Below, piece by piece: positions 2,723 to 9,539 of a DNA stretch of 22,035 nucleotides. Within the stretch, counting starts at the first letter, position 1. The number at the start of each line of letters is the position of its first letter. The DNA is from a virus, in UHGV virus genome UHGV-0200595. The stretch is one strand, 5' to 3'. The notes under the pieces were generated by a model. It had not been told where the DNA came from and made no database searches. It saw only the letters and a list, made by a program, of their open reading frames with translations. The translations under genes were made by a program, and so were the position numbers.

Positions 2723-3154
2723 TCATTGCTTCAGTTCATGGCGGGCAGCTTCAGCGATGAAGTGACTGCGGTCGCGATAAACGTTGCTGGCCTTTACTGC
2801 ATTATCGATCCGCTTAATCAGCGTATCAGGTAATGAGATGTTTATGCGCTGAGGCTTGCCTTCGAATTCTGACAAATCAACGTCGACCATAACCCAGCTG
2901 TCGAAGTCTTTATATTCTGGATTAACGGAATAAACCAGATAGCCAGCATCCTTGATATCTTCGACAGCAACATCGTTATTCTGAACCAGGTCTTCGACAA
3001 CCATCAGGATAGCTTCTTTCACCATTGGGGCAATCTGGTCCTGAGTATCAGCAGCGGAGAAACATCCGTAATCGTAAGCTGAAAACGCGGGAACGATCAT
3101 ACCGTAGGCGGTCTTTTCATCTTTCGGCGTCTCGACGCCCACTGAGAAGAACAT
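2723..3154 (-). CDS. hicB: HicB-family antitoxin with a C-terminal ribbon-helix-helix DNA-binding domain
   Basis: 143 aa. It has a HicB-like N-terminal fold and a C-terminal RINISLPDTLIKRID...RSHFIAEAARHEL RHH motif. SD GGAGG lies 5 nt upstream. It sits immediately downstream of hicA. Confidence 0.85.
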   Translation of the reverse strand: MFFSVGVETPKDEKTAYGMIVPAFSAYDYGCFSAADTQDQIAPMVKEAILMVVEDLVQNNDVAVEDIKDAGYLVYSVNPEYKDFDSWVMVDVDLSEFEGKPQRINISLPDTLIKRIDNAVKASNVYRDRSHFIAEAARHELKQ

Positions 3155-4883: not shown

Positions 4884-5139
4884 TCACCCGCGAAGGCAGA
4901 ATATTTTACTGAAAAATGACGTTGGCCAGCGCGTCCGGAAAGCAAAAAATTCTGCGGAGTGCGGTGTTTTTGAATAATAAATGCTGATTTCGATTTTCAC
5001 GATTCAGATATCGATCACTGGTATTACAGCAGCCCTTCAATGAGGGGCTGCGATAATGCCAAAGTTCGCCATCGGCACCCGCCGCGCACCCTGCGCACTG
5101 GTCGATGGTGGACTTTTCAAATTTCAACATCGAGGCTGT

Positions 5140-5931
5140 ATGTGCGAAGAATTAACAATCGTCTATCGCCCGTTAAATGAACTGATACCGTGTGCAAGAA
5201 ATGCCAGAACCCACAGTGATGAGCAGGTGGCGCAATTGGTCGCCAGTATTAAGGAATTTGGCTGGACAAATCCGGTGCTGGTTGATGAAAACGGAGAGAT
5301 TATTGCCGGACATGGTCGTGTCATGGCCGCAGAATCGCTTGGCATGGATATCGTTCCGGTAATTGTCCTTACGAATCTGACAGACGATCAGAAACGGGCG
5401 TATCGTCTGGCAGATAACCGGCTGCCGATGAATGCAGGCTGGGATGTGGAACTGCTGAGGCTGGAAATTGCAGATTTGCTGGATGCTGATTTCGATATTT
5501 CTCTGACAGGGTTTAACCAGGCAGAGATTGACGAACTGCTGACTGAAATTACAACAGACACAGAAAGCGGCGATGAGCCGTACACAGCAAAAATTGATAC
5601 GCCTGTTTATGAGCCGTCAGGAGAAAAGCCTGATATCGGAGAATTGTACGACGACGAGAAGACTCAGGAACTGGCAGAGCGTATCCGCAAAGCCGGGCTT
5701 GACCCAGAGATCGAAAAATTCCTCCTGAGTGCAGCAGAGCGGCACACCATTTTCAATTTCAGCAAAATTGCTGATTACTATGCTCACGCTCCGGCAGAGA
5801 TACAGGCGCTGTTCGAAGAATCCGCACTGGTGATCATTGATTTTCAGCAAGCCATTGAACACGGTTTTGTCCGTATGACTCAGCGCATGGTGGAGATCAT
5901 GCATGGAGATGAGGAGGAGGAATATGCGTGA
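5140..5931 (+). CDS. ParB/Srx-like N-terminal-domain protein with an unassigned C-terminal domain
   Basis: YRPLNELIPCARNARTHSDEQVAQLVASIKEFGWTNPVLVD..IIAGHGRVMAA (GHGR at 5308-5319) and RAYRLADNRL..AGWD..LL match the ParB-like module seen N-terminal to phage DNA methylases. The preferred start is the ATG at 5140 (GAGG upstream); the track start at 5056 is possible. Confidence 0.8.
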   Translation: MCEELTIVYRPLNELIPCARNARTHSDEQVAQLVASIKEFGWTNPVLVDENGEIIAGHGRVMAAESLGMDIVPVIVLTNLTDDQKRAYRLADNRLPMNAGWDVELLRLEIADLLDADFDISLTGFNQAEIDELLTEITTDTESGDEPYTAKIDTPVYEPSGEKPDIGELYDDEKTQELAERIRKAGLDPEIEKFLLSAAERHTIFNFSKIADYYAHAPAEIQALFEESALVIIDFQQAIEHGFVRMTQRMVEIMHGDEEEEYA

Positions 5932-6775
5932 TGATTTTTGCGCATTTATTCTGACCCACGGACGGCCGGATAATGTGCTGACATACCGCACTCTGCGCCG
6001 GGCGGGTTACACCGGAAAAATATATATCGTTGTTGATGACGAGGATAAGACCCGGCAGCAGTATATTCAGGCGTTTGGCGATCAGGTGCTGGTATTTTCT
6101 AAAACGGATATTGCCAGCCGCTTCGATGAAGCAGACAACTTTGGCGACCGTCGCTCAATCTTTTATGCCAGGAATGCCTGTCCGGACCTGGCAAAAAAGG
6201 TTGGGTGTAAATATTACATCCAGCTCGATGACGACTATCACGAGTTCCAGTTTCGGGTGGATCGCAACTATGACCAGGCCTATTTCCCGATAAGGAAACT
6301 GGATGAGATCCTTTCTGAAATGCTGGCGTATTACGAATCAATACCTGCGCTTTCCATCGCTATGGCGCAGGGTGGTGATTTTCTTGGTGACAATGGCGGC
6401 CACGCCGCATGGGTGAAACGGAAGGCGATGAACAGTTTTATCTGTTCCGTTGAGCGACCGTTTTCATTCGTGGGGCGCATTAACGAGGACGTGAACACAT
6501 ACACGAACCTCGGACGGTGCGGCGAACTGTTTATGACAGTGGGGGCTGTGCAGTTGGGCCAGAAGCAGACGCAGAAAAACAGCGGCGGCATGACTGAACT
6601 GTATCTGGATTCTGGTACCTACGTTAAAAGTTTTTACTCCGTCATGTATGCGCCGTCGTGCGTGAAAATCGCACTGATGGGCGCCAGCCATAAACGCATT
6701 CACCATCAGGTCACCTGGAACAACGCTGCAGTAAAAATCCTTCACGAAAAATATAGGAAGAAGACACCCTGCTAA
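5924..6775 (+). CDS. GT-A fold (GT2-like) glycosyltransferase-like protein
   Basis: N-terminal beta-strand and loop FILTHGRPD, DxD-type motif QLDDDY (6227-6235), and an ED motif GRINEDVN (6485-6490) about 85 aa later, as in GT2 enzymes. The start ATG at 5924 follows GGAGGAGG and overlaps the ParB-like stop by 8 nt. An ATG at 5903 is an alternative start. Confidence 0.6.
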   Translation: MRDDFCAFILTHGRPDNVLTYRTLRRAGYTGKIYIVVDDEDKTRQQYIQAFGDQVLVFSKTDIASRFDEADNFGDRRSIFYARNACPDLAKKVGCKYYIQLDDDYHEFQFRVDRNYDQAYFPIRKLDEILSEMLAYYESIPALSIAMAQGGDFLGDNGGHAAWVKRKAMNSFICSVERPFSFVGRINEDVNTYTNLGRCGELFMTVGAVQLGQKQTQKNSGGMTELYLDSGTYVKSFYSVMYAPSCVKIALMGASHKRIHHQVTWNNAAVKILHEKYRKKTPC

Positions 6776-6792: not shown

Positions 6793-7044
6793 GTGATTCC
6801 GTATCAAAAAGTTGAGTCTCTGGCTGCGTGCCGTATGACACCGCAGCAGATAGCCGATGCTCTCGATATCGACCTGGATGAGCTGAAACAGGATCGGGAA
6901 TGCCTCGGAAAATTTTATAAGTACATCAGAAAAGGAAGAGCCAAAGGCGAAGCCGAACTGAGGGCTGCGCTGTTCAAGCGTGCCCGGAAAGGCGATGCCT
7001 TTGCCCTGCGCGAATTACTCAAGGTGGATAAAAATCAGGACTAA
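6793..7044 (+). CDS. Small HTH-like protein preceding the terminase genes
   Basis: 83 aa from a GTG start; an internal Met at MTPQQIADAL is an alternative. The helix-turn-helix-like MTPQQIADALDID is followed by a basic helical tail. Position is immediately 5' of terS. Confidence 0.55.
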   Translation: MIPYQKVESLAACRMTPQQIADALDIDLDELKQDRECLGKFYKYIRKGRAKGEAELRAALFKRARKGDAFALRELLKVDKNQD

Positions 7045-7047
7045 CTG

Positions 7048-8127
7048 ATGAGCAGACAGGACTGGGTTGCATTGCGGCAGGAGTACATCGCTGAATACAC
7101 CCGATCCGGCATATCCCAGGAAGAATGGTGTAAAGCGAAGGGATTAAATTACAACACTGCTCGCCGCTACCTGAAAAAACCAACCAATGATACGCAAACC
7201 GAAGTGCGCAAAACTGCGCAAAAAGGTGCGCAAAAGAAAACTGCGCAAACTGCGCAAAAGCGAACCGACAAAACAGGGAAGAAAAAATCCAGAGTGATGG
7301 TTTCTCCCGTTGCAGAAAACGACCAGGAAATTTCATTCGATCCCGATGAATTCGGCATTTCAGACCAGCAGGCGAAGTTTGCGATGCTGGTTGCTCAGGG
7401 TAAAAACCTCATCGAAGCATACCGCCTGGCTGGGTATAAATCTGAGGGGAATGCGGCGAGCGCCGGGGCAAGCCAGTTATTAAGAAATACTAAGGTTTAT
7501 CGCGCCATCTCCTGGTTCCGTAATCAGTACCAGAAACGTTACACCGCTGACCTCGATTTACTGGTGGGCCAGCTTATGTCCATTGTCATGGCTGACCCGA
7601 ACGAACTGGCACAATTTCGGCGTGTTAACTGCCGTTATTGTTGGGGTGAAAATCACCTCTATCAGTGGCGTGATATAGAGGAGTTCGACAAAGCCGCAGA
7701 GAAGGCCAGCAAGGACGGTAAGCCTGTGCCTGAGTACGGTGGCCTCGGATTCGTTGATAACGCCATACCCAATCCGGACTGCCCGAAATGCTGCGGTGAG
7801 GGGCGGGGTGAAATCCATATTGCCGATACCACCATGCTTGATGGCGATGCGCGACTGCTTTACGCCGGGGCTAAGTACGGGAAATTCGGCGTCGAAATAC
7901 TGATGGAGGACAAGGGTGCAGCGCGCCGCGAACTTCTGAAGTATCTGGCGACGGTGAAAAAAACGTTGCCGGAAAATGGTGAAGGATCTGCAAATACGGA
8001 TCTGGATGATGAATGGAAACGCCTTCGCAATGAAAAACTGCGCACCGAGATTGAGAATCTCAAGAAAGGCGCTGGTGGCGCTATCCCGATTGAAACATCA
8101 ACGATGAGCACTTTATTCGGAAAATGA
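7048..8127 (+). CDS. Terminase small subunit (P27/Terminase_2-like core) with an N-terminal HTH and a C-terminal CxxC...CxxC region
   Basis: The core ISDQQAKFAMLVAQGKNLIEAYRLAGYKSEGNAASAGASQLLRNTKV resembles Terminase_2 small subunits. It is directly upstream of terL and overlaps it. Confidence 0.8.
   Translation: MSRQDWVALRQEYIAEYTRSGISQEEWCKAKGLNYNTARRYLKKPTNDTQTEVRKTAQKGAQKKTAQTAQKRTDKTGKKKSRVMVSPVAENDQEISFDPDEFGISDQQAKFAMLVAQGKNLIEAYRLAGYKSEGNAASAGASQLLRNTKVYRAISWFRNQYQKRYTADLDLLVGQLMSIVMADPNELAQFRRVNCRYCWGENHLYQWRDIEEFDKAAEKASKDGKPVPEYGGLGFVDNAIPNPDCPKCCGEGRGEIHIADTTMLDGDARLLYAGAKYGKFGVEILMEDKGAARRELLKYLATVKKTLPENGEGSANTDLDDEWKRLRNEKLRTEIENLKKGAGGAIPIETSTMSTLFGK
7191..7258. repeat. Array of the octamer TGCGCAAA inside terS
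   Basis: Perfect copies start at 7205, 7215, 7227, 7242 and 7251. There is a 7/8 copy (TACGCAAA) at 7191. All copies are in the same orientation. Confidence 0.85.
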
Positions 8128-9539
8128 CCTCGATTAACCCAATCTTTGAACCGTTCATTGAGGCGCATCGCTACAAAGTCGCCAAGGGAGGCCGGGGTAG
8201 CGGTAAGTCATGGGCTATTGCAAGACTGCTGGTTGAAGCATCGCGTCGACAGCCGGTACGCATCCTGTGCGCTCGTGAACTGCAAAACAGCATCAGCGAC
8301 TCGGTAATCCGCTTGCTTGACGACACTATAGTGCGTGAAGGGTATTCGGCAGAGTTCGAAATACAGCGTTCTATGATTCGCCATCTCGGAACCAATGCTG
8401 AATTCATGTTCTACGGCATCAAAAACAACCCGACGAAAATTAAATCGCTCGAAGGTATTGATATTTGCTGGGTGGAAGAAGCAGAAGCGGTAACGAAGGA
8501 ATCATGGGATATCCTGATACCAACCATCCGCAAGCCGTTCTCTGAAATATGGGTGAGCTTTAACCCGAAGAACATCCTCGACGATACCTACCAGCGATTC
8601 GTCGTAAATCCTCCAGATGATATTTGTTTGCTGACGGTTAACTACACCGACAATCCTCACTTTCCCGAAGTTCTCCGGCTGGAGATGGAAGAGTGCAAAC
8701 GCAGAAATCCGACACTGTATCGTCATATCTGGCTGGGTGAGCCGGTAAGCGCAAGTGATATGGCAATCATCAAACGTGAATGGCTTGAAGCTGCAACCGA
8801 TGCACACAAGAAACTCGGATGGAAAGCGAAAGGCGCGGTTGTTTCTGCGCATGACCCATCAGATACAGGGCCAGATGCTAAAGGTTACGCGTCCCGCCAC
8901 GGTTCGGTTGTTAAGCGGATTGCTGAAGGTCTGTTGATGGACATCAACGAAGGCGCTGACTGGGCTACATCGCTGGCTATTGAAGATGGCTCAGACCATT
9001 ACTTGTGGGATGGCGATGGCATTGGTGCTGGTCTTCGCAGGCAGACAACTGAAGCGTTCTCCGGCAAAAAAATTACCGCAACGATGTTCAAGGGTAGCGA
9101 GTCGCCATTCGATGAAGATGCACTATATCAGGCCGGAGCATGGGCCGATGAAGTCGTGCAGGGTGACAACGTTCGCACTATTGGTGATGTGTTCCGCAAT
9201 AAGCGAGCGCAATTTTATTACGCGCTGGCTGACAGGCTGTATCTGACATATCGGGCGGTTGTCTACGGTGAGTATGCAGACCCCGACGACATGCTGAGTT
9301 TCGACAAAGAAGCGATAGGCGAGAAGATGCTGGAGAAGCTGTTTGCAGAACTGACGCAGATTCAGCGCAAATTCAATAACAACGGGAAGCTGGAGCTTAT
9401 GACTAAGGTCGAAATGAAGCAGAAGCTCGGTATTCCATCTCCTAACCTGGCTGATGCACTGATGATGTGTATGCATTGCCCTGAGCTGGCAGCGCAACCT
9501 GACTATTCCAGTTACTCAATTCCTTGTGGTGTAGGTTGA
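8124..9539 (+). CDS. Terminase large subunit (PBSX/Sf6 gp2-like)
   Basis: Walker A KGGRGSGKS near the N-terminus, WVEEAE Walker B-like motif, 471 aa. It lies between terS and the portal gene. Confidence 0.95.
   Translation: MTSINPIFEPFIEAHRYKVAKGGRGSGKSWAIARLLVEASRRQPVRILCARELQNSISDSVIRLLDDTIVREGYSAEFEIQRSMIRHLGTNAEFMFYGIKNNPTKIKSLEGIDICWVEEAEAVTKESWDILIPTIRKPFSEIWVSFNPKNILDDTYQRFVVNPPDDICLLTVNYTDNPHFPEVLRLEMEECKRRNPTLYRHIWLGEPVSASDMAIIKREWLEAATDAHKKLGWKAKGAVVSAHDPSDTGPDAKGYASRHGSVVKRIAEGLLMDINEGADWATSLAIEDGSDHYLWDGDGIGAGLRRQTTEAFSGKKITATMFKGSESPFDEDALYQAGAWADEVVQGDNVRTIGDVFRNKRAQFYYALADRLYLTYRAVVYGEYADPDDMLSFDKEAIGEKMLEKLFAELTQIQRKFNNNGKLELMTKVEMKQKLGIPSPNLADALMMCMHCPELAAQPDYSSYSIPCGVG

Follow-up and report, generated by a model that had tools for sequence, protein, structure and literature searches.

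A ParB-like protein coupled to a TAGT-family glycosyltransferase: a candidate DNA glycosylation module in phages of Bacteria and Archaea

The virus genome UHGV-0200595, analysed here as a stretch of 22,035 nucleotides (nt; the window), contains two overlapping genes just upstream of its terminase genes. Gene 1 encodes a protein with an N-terminal ParB/Srx-like domain and gene 2 a GT-A glycosyltransferase of the TET-associated glycosyltransferase (TAGT) family. The reading that we favour, and regard as moderately probable, is that the two genes form a late-expressed glycosylation module in which the enzyme is assisted by its partner and acts most likely on double-stranded phage DNA after replication, at or just before packaging. 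The pair has the following features (aa, amino acids):

5140-5931, + strand: gene 1, ParB/Srx-like protein, 263 aa plus stop; E. coli orthologues are annotated ynaK
5140-5544, + strand: nucleotide-binding ParB/Srx domain of gene 1, aa 1-135, with N21, R23, S36, G57-x-x-R60-x-x-A63 and D92-N93
5545-5655, + strand: acidic linker of gene 1, aa 136-172, predicted to be disordered, with the conserved motif Y148-T-x-K-I-x-T-P155-x-Y157-E-P159 at nt 5581-5616
5656-5928, + strand: family-specific helical C-terminal domain of gene 1, aa 173-250, and acidic tail; proposed to serve in glycosyltransferase docking and/or dimerisation
5911-5931, + strand: coupling junction, with the Shine-Dalgarno sequence GAGGAGGAGG at 5911-5920, the ATG of gene 2 at 5924-5926 and the TGA of gene 1 at 5929-5931
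5924-6775, + strand: gene 2, GT-A glycosyltransferase of the TAGT family, 283 aa plus stop, the last 69 aa basic; motifs G13-R14-P15 at 5960-5968, FDEADNF at 6122-6142, DDD at 6227-6235 (D102-104) and ED at 6485-6490 (E188-D189)

Gene 2 encodes a glycosyltransferase of the TAGT family

An earlier note on this DNA, made from the sequence alone, had recognised hallmarks of a sugar transferase in gene 2, namely an N-terminal FILTHGRPD, DDD at 6227-6235 and ED at 6485-6490. All of these were confirmed, and the protein belongs to the Pfam family TAGT (PF20691), whose profile it matches at positions 4-205 of 205 with 123.9 bits against a cut-off of 27.5 (E = 1e-35). The match to phrog_842, which is annotated as beta-glucosyl-HMC-alpha-glucosyltransferase (HMC, hydroxymethylcytosine) and holds the T-even enzyme, extends over positions 1-259 of 270 (E = 1e-98). 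Among 40 homologues with 61-84% identity, R14, D102-D104 and D189 are invariant and E188 is nearly so (at least 90%). Gene 2 combines a GT-A fold with R...DDD...ED motifs. The same motifs define both those phage GT-A enzymes for which glycosylation of 5-hydroxymethylcytosine (5hmC) in DNA has been demonstrated and their distant relative, the base-J glucosyltransferase (JGT). A T6-type TAGT was described as "likely responsible" for the second glucose on glucosyl-hmC.

In a library of viral protein structures (BFVD), the best matches of gene 2 were TAGT proteins, and a beta-glucosyl-HMC-alpha-glucosyltransferase of a T4-like phage was retrieved as well. Sequence identity to the viral TAGT matches was approximately 13-29% outside of Lactobacillus phage fragments, and 13% to the only T-even-type enzyme found, that of Klebsiella phage PKO111. 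Neither structure nor profile searches placed gene 2 in a non-transferase fold, so that the assignment as a transferase stands. A sequence search of the PDB returned nothing meaningful, and NCBIfam and PADLOC held no model matching gene 2; in UniRef and RefSeq, relatives of gene 2 carry the name "GREB1-related". The protein has an isoelectric point (pI) of 8.6, and its C-terminal 69 residues have a pI of 9.7 and a charge of +7. The pair thereby shows a strong charge asymmetry between an acidic ParB-like protein and a basic glycosyltransferase.

Gene 1 combines a ParB/Srx domain with a conserved C-terminal half

The N-terminal ~130 aa of gene 1 had been described in the earlier note as a ParB/Srx-like module. 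The motifs named for it are in place (GHGR at aa 57-60, RAYRLADNRL at 86-95, AGWD..ELL at 99-106 and TGF..EID.LL at 123-134), the Pfam family ParB_N (PF02195) matches with 38.4 bits against a gathering cut-off of 26.3, and Foldseek with the AlphaFold2 (AF2) model retrieved the ParB-fold structures Noc (7nfu, E = 2e-7), CTP-bound ParB, PadC and KorB as well as sulfiredoxin (Srx). Over its full length, gene 1 is matched by phrog_620 (E = 2e-80), and more than 7,900 homologues were found. The upstream ATG at 5056 was rejected as start in favour of 5140, since diverse homologues begin within a few residues of the latter and DNA homology to E. coli phages starts only at about 5133, the intergenic DNA 5' of gene 1 not being conserved with these phages.

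Sequence motifs for the binding of nucleoside triphosphates (NTPs) in the ParB/Srx fold are present in gene 1 as boxes I, II and III. Box I has the pattern N/Q-x-R, and in the alignment to Noc and ParB, G57-x-x-R60-x-x-A63 corresponds to box II (GERR, GERRxRA) and D92-N93 to box III (EN). The alignment of gene 1 homologues shows no variation at N21, G57, R60, A63, D92 and N93, and most sequences keep R23. N21, R23, S36 and R60 have nearly the same spacing as N14, R16, S29 and R56 discussed for ParB176, the activator of a phage dioxygenase, and judging from their positions these residues may be equivalent to those of ParB176 and MxParB.

We rejected the possibility that gene 1 encodes a partition ParB, because it scored below the curated model TIGR00180 (41.3 bits, cut-off 58.45), no helix-turn-helix (HTH) family matched in the Pfam scan, no parA was present among the window genes examined, and a search for parS-like or other cis elements yielded only weak repeats of chance quality and no convincing palindrome. 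A function as nuclease for host DNA was likewise discarded, as no support for it was found. Gene 1 has a pI of 4.3 (family median 4.6) and a net charge of -34. With this charge and without an HTH, the DNA-targeting role that the earlier note had ascribed to the ParB-like module is unlikely, and a role as activator or clamp fits better. Ocr and ArdA are acidic anti-restriction proteins of phages that mimic DNA, and the acidity of gene 1 is reminiscent of such mimics.

Beyond aa 135, the earlier note had seen an acidic linker and an unassigned alpha-helical domain. This description holds in so far as an acidic, disordered linker is followed by a helical domain and no Pfam family matches the C-terminal region. 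However, the linker carries a conserved motif and the whole C-terminal half is conserved among 38 homologues, for which reason the idea of a mere linker was abandoned. The motif has the consensus Y-[ST]-x-K-[IV]-x-x-P-x-Y-x-P (aa 148-159) and lies inside the segment predicted to be disordered (AF2 pLDDT, the per-residue model confidence, below 50 for aa 136-160). Y148, P155, Y157 and P159 are invariant in the 38 homologues, and the motif is retained also in distant representatives. The helical domain contains many invariant positions. An exhaustive search of 1.84 billion representatives with the C-terminal region gave 1,190 matching clusters. Among the clusters listed, the region is almost always located at the C-terminus, usually in proteins of ~250-300 aa; the shorter entries look like fragments and a few are longer. 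This nearly constant layout indicates that the region is specific to the gene 1 architecture.

The two genes are coupled and travel together

Direct reading of the junction bore out the 8-nt overlap of the two genes proposed before (ATGCGTGA, preceded by GAGGAGGAGG). The start of gene 2 is the same methionine in 11 of 11 aligned homologues, most of which open with MRDDFC or a similar sequence. Of 53 diverse loci, 47 show the two genes either overlapping or separated by no more than 7 nt, and in 26 the overlap is 8 or 11 nt.

A profile scan with gene 2, restricted to one genome per species, yielded 59 loci from Enterobacteriaceae, Bacteroides, Veillonella, Clostridia, Verrucomicrobia, Spirochaetes, Patescibacteria and one archaeal metagenome-assembled genome (MAG); the phyla with the pair are Proteobacteria, Bacteroidota, Firmicutes, Verrucomicrobia and Spirochaetes, in addition to the archaeal MAG. 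A gene 1 homologue was located directly 5' of the glycosyltransferase gene on the same strand in 54 of the 59 loci, the other five being cut by contig ends or partial matches. In the converse search, starting from gene 1, the glycosyltransferase gene followed downstream in 77 of 80 viral loci, and two of the exceptions were truncated. Homologues of the two genes are thus genetically linked, and together with the co-variation described below, this linkage excludes chance adjacency. The coupling is very strong but not absolute, as 191-kb Vibrio phages contain a 44%-identical glycosyltransferase in a context of replication genes without a ParB-annotated neighbour; an unassigned 139-aa open reading frame (ORF) is located immediately 5' of it.

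Among the cultured viruses with the pair are the Lactobacillus phages c5, LL-Ku and phi jlb1, Nocardia phage NTR1 and the haloarchaeal virus HHTV-2. In Lactobacillus phage c5 (L141, 1-1713), ORF1 and ORF2 constitute the pair and are the first genes after cos; the last gene before cos encodes an HNH endonuclease. HNH genes were also observed 5' of the dyad in two of four metagenomic neighbourhoods examined (L143, 10368-10748, is among the HNH examples) and 3' of the dyad in a third. Among 5,426 complete E. coli genomes, 1,004 (~18%) contain the pair, and in 893 of these the match covers at least 80% of the query. The RefSeq annotation there is ynaK and "GREB1-related protein", and the pair is found in Rac-type prophages with recET, kil, sieB and trkG, directly after trkG (L060, ON470614.1, 19290-22619). 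None of the E. coli matches to the window exceeded 95% identity and nearly all were at 80-90%; the closest named gene 1 proteins are from Citrobacter (90%). The window thus probably derives from an enterobacterial genus other than Escherichia.

Genes upstream of the pair are heterogeneous across loci. On its downstream side, the pair is almost always located just 5' of terminase genes, which belong to at least five unrelated families (Terminase_6N, Terminase_3, GpA, TerL_ATPase and T7-like), with portal genes next. When all ORFs of the 59 loci were clustered in search of a conserved third partner, the only families present in more than 13 loci were the pair itself, packaging genes and antisense shadows.

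The ParB-like module is shared with methylases and its C-terminal half co-varies with the glycosyltransferase

According to the earlier note, the N-terminal module is one that is often fused to N6/N4 DNA methylases, and this proved correct. Residues 5-144 of gene 1 match positions 33-175 of the 633 positions of phrog_498 (ParB-N6/N4 methylase, E = 6e-53), and the PADLOC model MTase_II matches the N-terminal module (E = 5e-43). Gene 1 itself contains no methylase domain detectable with Pfam and is thus not a covalent ParB-methylase fusion. In one locus (L135), an N-domain with 69% identity over aa 5-135 of gene 1 is fused to an N6/N4 DNA methylase, the homology ending there, and the fusion gene occupies the same slot, 5' of homologues of the 83-aa ORF and the TerS gene that follow the pair in the window. 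The alternation with ParB-methylase fusions is therefore real. Another locus (L140) has an N-domain with 65% identity next to an unrelated C-terminal region and an adjoining TAGT with only 26% identity, meaning that the C-terminal region and the glycosyltransferase subtype were exchanged together.

Across 75 non-redundant pairs, distances between glycosyltransferases correlated better with those of the C-terminal region of the ParB-like protein (Mantel r = 0.62) than with those of the N-domain (r = 0.36; bootstrap 95% interval of the difference 0.16-0.34). From this co-variation and the joint exchange in L140, we read the C-terminal half as the effector-specific part, which may mediate docking and/or dimerisation, and the N-domain as a generic module. 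Instead of physical contact, recombination of the N-domain could account for part of the mirror-tree correlation.

Several loci deviate from the simple two-gene arrangement. On six viral contigs (L085, L088, L089, L094, L095 and L100), a gene for ~320 aa is inserted between the ParB-like gene and the glycosyltransferase gene (for example L088:2942-3895) and fuses a histidine phosphatase (His_Phos_1) to a cytidylyltransferase-like domain; to judge from these domains, the product may make an activated donor. Architectural variants (L031:3581-5275, L021:189-1739 and L129:1689-3391) comprise a fusion of a TAGT with a class I methyltransferase followed by a second TAGT, a Methyltransf_23-like domain ahead of the ParB-like protein, and tandem TAGT paralogues. 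Genes for class I methyltransferases and, downstream, for UDP-galactopyranose mutase and epimerases or dehydratases are added in some loci, which gives them the look of glycan-building clusters. A metagenomic phage with the dyad (L145:17837-20316, L146:8659-11138) contains four successive genes of Glycos_transf_2 type right after the capsid gene, and these may form a glycosylation system of their own, directed at the virion or at some other target. A single 161-aa fragment (P0241) in which a ParB-like protein is fused to the glycosyltransferase is probably a frameshift or gene-calling artefact and was not used as evidence.

Genomic context in the window

By gene content and Pfam matches, the window represents the late region of a lambdoid, P22-type enterobacterial phage or prophage. 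The genes on the + strand are arranged in this order:

DUF1367, YbcO and Q antiterminator; methylase remnant; holin and GH108 endolysin; gene 1 and gene 2; 83-aa TerS-like ORF, TerS and TerL; P22 portal, coat and tail accessory genes
6793-9539, + strand, downstream context outside the module: 83-aa TerS-like ORF (6793-7044), TerS (7048-8127) and TerL (8124-9539), then P22-type portal and coat genes

Downstream of the pair, Pfam assigned Terminase_2 (TerS), Terminase_3 (TerL), P22_portal and P22_CoatProtein. Because the pair lies downstream of Q on the same strand, flanked by the lysis genes and TerS, we place it in the late transcript, to which it would belong by analogy with lambdoid gene organisation. 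A scan around the pair gave promoters no better than expected from shuffled sequences and only weak terminator-like sites within coding sequence.

The 83-aa ORF between the glycosyltransferase and TerS genes (6793-7044, + strand) has a GTG start, matches the middle part of the TerS profile phrog_309 (positions 145-218 of 319) and is followed by TerS in almost all enterobacterial loci examined; by this similarity it looks like a split-off or additional TerS-like DNA-binding piece. Just 3' of the Q antiterminator gene, a 168-aa ORF (2154-2660, + strand) corresponds, with 72% identity, to the C-terminal 149 aa of an adenine N6/N4 DNA methylase whose full-length form of 350 aa is present in a related phage (L071:1863-2915). 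Since the N-terminal half is missing, the copy in the window probably is a remnant truncated at its 5' end and inactive. Antisense between the Q region and the lysis genes (2723-3154, - strand) lies a gene for a HicB-like antitoxin, the C-terminus of which is of the ribbon-helix-helix type.

Discussion

In the proposed mechanism, gene 2 would be the catalyst, a metal-dependent GT-A enzyme that uses a nucleotide-sugar donor and belongs to a family whose characterised members glycosylate DNA bases. Gene 1 would be its cognate partner, in which an NTP-binding domain of ParB type is joined to a C-terminal domain specific to the family through a disordered linker that contains a conserved motif. 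A precedent for such a partnership was recently described: a subclass of phage thymine dioxygenases requires a cognate ParB-like protein on double-stranded DNA (O'Toole 2026, PNAS, PMC13229309). Activators of the ParB176 type consist of an NTP-binding domain, a linker and a C-terminal domain without a DNA-binding domain; both domains are required and the activation is pair-specific. In the predicted complexes, the enzyme is located between the two domains of ParB, comparable to KorB-KorA (O'Toole 2026, PMC13229309). By analogy with these activators and with KorB-KorA, it is probable that gene 1 forms a dimer which keeps the basic glycosyltransferase on duplex DNA or activates it there, and it would do so as an NTP-gated clamp or activator rather than by targeting a sequence. 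As gene 1 is very acidic and lacks a DNA-binding domain, contact with DNA is more plausibly made by the glycosyltransferase. The constant place of the pair beside unrelated terminases fits an action on replicated concatemers around packaging, and the purpose may be to shield progeny DNA from host nucleases.

The points that weigh against this mechanism concern mainly the acceptor. To our knowledge, the established DNA acceptors of TAGT-type enzymes are 5hmC, glucosyl-5hmC or 5-hydroxymethyluracil (5hmU), the last for the distant JGT. No TET/JBP dioxygenase, thymidylate-synthase-type hydroxymethylase or C5-methylase was found in the window, in the 38.7-kb record of E. coli phage vB_EcoS-666R9, which ends within the tail genes, in the complete 31.8-kb genome of phage c5, or, by precomputed Pfam annotation, within 10 kb on either side of four diverse homologues. 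Across the 139 loci the screen for TET was indirect, based on the 25 most frequent Pfam families per set, and fragments of C5-methylases occurred ~5 kb upstream in only 6 of the 59 loci. A genomic association of the TAGT with TET/JBP (5mYOX) or hydroxymethylase genes was thus not seen in the sequences inspected, and the only DNA acceptors established for the family are missing there. Also the AF2 models are of low confidence in the C-terminal domain of gene 1 and over the last 70 residues of gene 2. ParB176 with mutated NTP-binding residues still activates (O'Toole 2026, PMC13229309), so that an NTP-gated clamp is not established even in the precedent. Finally, the eukaryotic relative GREB1 O-GlcNAcylates a protein, the estrogen receptor ER-alpha, at T553/S554. 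The proposal of the earlier note, a DNA-modification system acting for example by glycosylation, consequently remains plausible with regard to the characterised family members, which glycosylate DNA, but unproven in the light of the undetected TET/5mYOX and hydroxymethylase genes.

As no acceptor-making enzyme was found, three options are left: a new DNA acceptor, a protein target or a cryptic oxidase. Tentatively, we consider that the dyad might glycosylate DNA without a hydroxymethyl-pyrimidine precursor, the glycosyltransferase being held on the duplex by an NTP-binding ParB-like clamp and setting a chemically new mark on a canonical base, the backbone or a DNA end. If this were true, prophages in about a fifth of E. 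coli genomes, together with phages infecting Bacteria and Archaea, would be producing such a mark, and it would have gone unnoticed because the genes would be silent in lysogens. Modification of a protein instead of DNA appears rather unlikely to us, although several observations would agree with it. As the module moves among phages with unrelated terminases, portals and capsids, a protein target would have to travel along, and gene 1 is the sole constant partner; most economically, gene 1 itself would be the substrate or an adaptor, otherwise a universal packaging or host protein, and the modification would control a step as packaging begins. The linker, predicted to be disordered, presents a conserved motif and the invariant hydroxyl residues Y148, T149, Y157 and S/T160, and both the activity of the name-giving relative GREB1 and the lack of an acceptor-generating DNA enzyme in the inspected sequences point in the same direction. 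On the other hand, all phage members of the family that have been characterised or assigned act on DNA, the N-domain is closely related to that of the DNA methylase fusion of L135 at the same genomic site, the basic character of the glycosyltransferase is expected of an enzyme acting on nucleic acids, and the additional TAGT paralogues and sugar-nucleotide genes resemble DNA glycan-building clusters.

We regard it as improbable that the pair is an ordinary TAGT cassette glycosylating 5-hydroxymethyl-pyrimidines, with the oxidase or hydroxymethylase encoded elsewhere, too divergent to be recognised, or supplied by a co-resident element. Mining with 5mYOX profiles did retrieve thousands of contigs without TET/JBP Pfam annotation, which its authors read as possibly very divergent members; phage dioxygenases have glycosyltransferases, ParBs and terminases as their most frequent neighbours; and several phages with the pair, for example HHTV-2, contain many hypothetical genes. 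However, the well-annotated lambdoid Rac-type genome offers no plausible candidate, phage c5 has only small unassigned ORFs, the clustering of the 59 loci revealed no third conserved partner, and the Pfam annotation of the four diverse contigs contains no TET_JBP within 10 kb. It is very improbable that the glycosyltransferase modifies a polymer of the host envelope in lysogenic conversion or superinfection exclusion, comparable to prophage TarP or GtrABC, or that the two genes are unrelated neighbours at a permissive insertion site. The hosts have entirely different envelopes (Gram-negative, Gram-positive and haloarchaeal), phage c5 carries the pair without an annotated integrase, and neither protein matched a membrane or secretion family in the Pfam scans, which included no direct test for signal peptides or membrane segments. 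The place in the late operon and the translational coupling to a ParB-fold protein likewise speak against these readings, and mere neighbourhood is countered by the co-variation and by the linkage seen in 54 of 59 and in 77 of 80 loci.

We know of phage DNA glycosylation only downstream of hydroxymethylated pyrimidines. Here, the same type of enzyme occurs with a ParB-like partner, yet no acceptor-making step was found. The pair is very common, being present in ~1,000 of the 5,426 complete E. coli genomes and in phages of hosts as different as Lactobacillus and haloarchaea. A DNA substrate could mean a new modification with a bearing on restriction, type IV defence, sequencing artefacts and phage therapy, and a protein substrate could mean that a glycosyltransferase family of the DNA type was redirected to proteins. 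Identification of the substrate would also test ParB-fold proteins as general activators or clamps for DNA-modifying enzymes, given that three classes of effectors, methylase, dioxygenase and glycosyltransferase, share the ParB module. Experimentally the system is easily accessible, consisting of two small genes with E. coli as host and inducible Rac-like or P22-like prophages.

Comparison with known systems

The pairing is partly new. Its components, their annotation and the idea of a ParB protein combined with a modifying enzyme were known before; the dyad without a detected oxidase was not. TAGT was defined by Iyer et al. (2013; NAR 41:7635), who according to later papers illustrated ParB homologues in phage gene clusters for DNA hypermodification and hypothesised that they direct the modification machinery. 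GT-A enzymes were found to glycosylate 5hmC that is produced by a methylase and TET, with ParB and terminase among the neighbours, and ~65% of the glycosyltransferase contigs, which contained neither dioxygenase nor ThyS, were judged less obviously DNA-related (Burke 2021; Pyle 2023/2024). Phage ParB-fold fusions with N6/N4 methylase and Methyltransf_23 were described by Kaljevic (2025; PNAS, PMC12704722), where glycosyltransferases are unmentioned. Full-text literature searches returned no paper on the ParB-TAGT dyad itself. The statement of the earlier note that the pairing is not a described system therefore applies to the dyad without known oxidase, for which no dedicated paper was found, but not to its elements, as TAGT is a named family, the ParB-plus-modifier idea is published and RefSeq annotates ynaK together with a GREB1-related protein.

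With the TAGT family (PF20691/phrog_842), gene 2 shares the full-length profile match, the GT-A fold, the R...DDD...ED motifs, the phage origin and the frequent proximity of ParB and terminase genes. It differs from the known enzymes of the family in that no pathway for hmC or hmU was found alongside and in the obligatory coupling to a dedicated ParB-like gene. JGT and GREB1 are distant GT-A relatives with the same active-site motifs, of which JGT acts on hmU in DNA and GREB1 on protein; both are eukaryotic, and the identity between phage GT-A enzymes and JGT is ~9%.

Canonical CTPase clamps such as ParB, Noc and KorB have the ParB/Srx fold and the GxxRxxA and (D/E)N motifs in common with gene 1, whereas gene 1 differs from them by its charge of -34 and in that no HTH, no parA among the window genes examined and no parS-like repeat were detected. 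The fusions of ParB with N6/N4 methylases (phrog_498) resemble gene 1 in the N-terminal 135 aa (69%, L135) and in the genomic slot. Their effector, a methylase, is covalently attached, whereas gene 1 ends in a C-terminal domain of its own and its effector is a separate protein, linked by translational coupling. A parallel in layout is 5mYOX176/ParB176. Like ParB176, the product of gene 1 is a small ParB-like protein that lacks a DNA-binding domain and comprises a domain for NTP binding, a short helical segment, a linker predicted to be disordered and a C-terminal domain; its gene lies beside that of the enzyme that it would serve, the residues of the NTP motifs are kept, and the cognate specificity of ParB176 is paralleled by the co-variation observed here. 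The partner is a glycosyltransferase instead of a dioxygenase, and the likeness concerns the described layout and residue positions. By its domain order, derived from the alignment and the AF2 model, and by its adjacency to the effector gene, gene 1 fits the layout of ParB-dependent modification systems.

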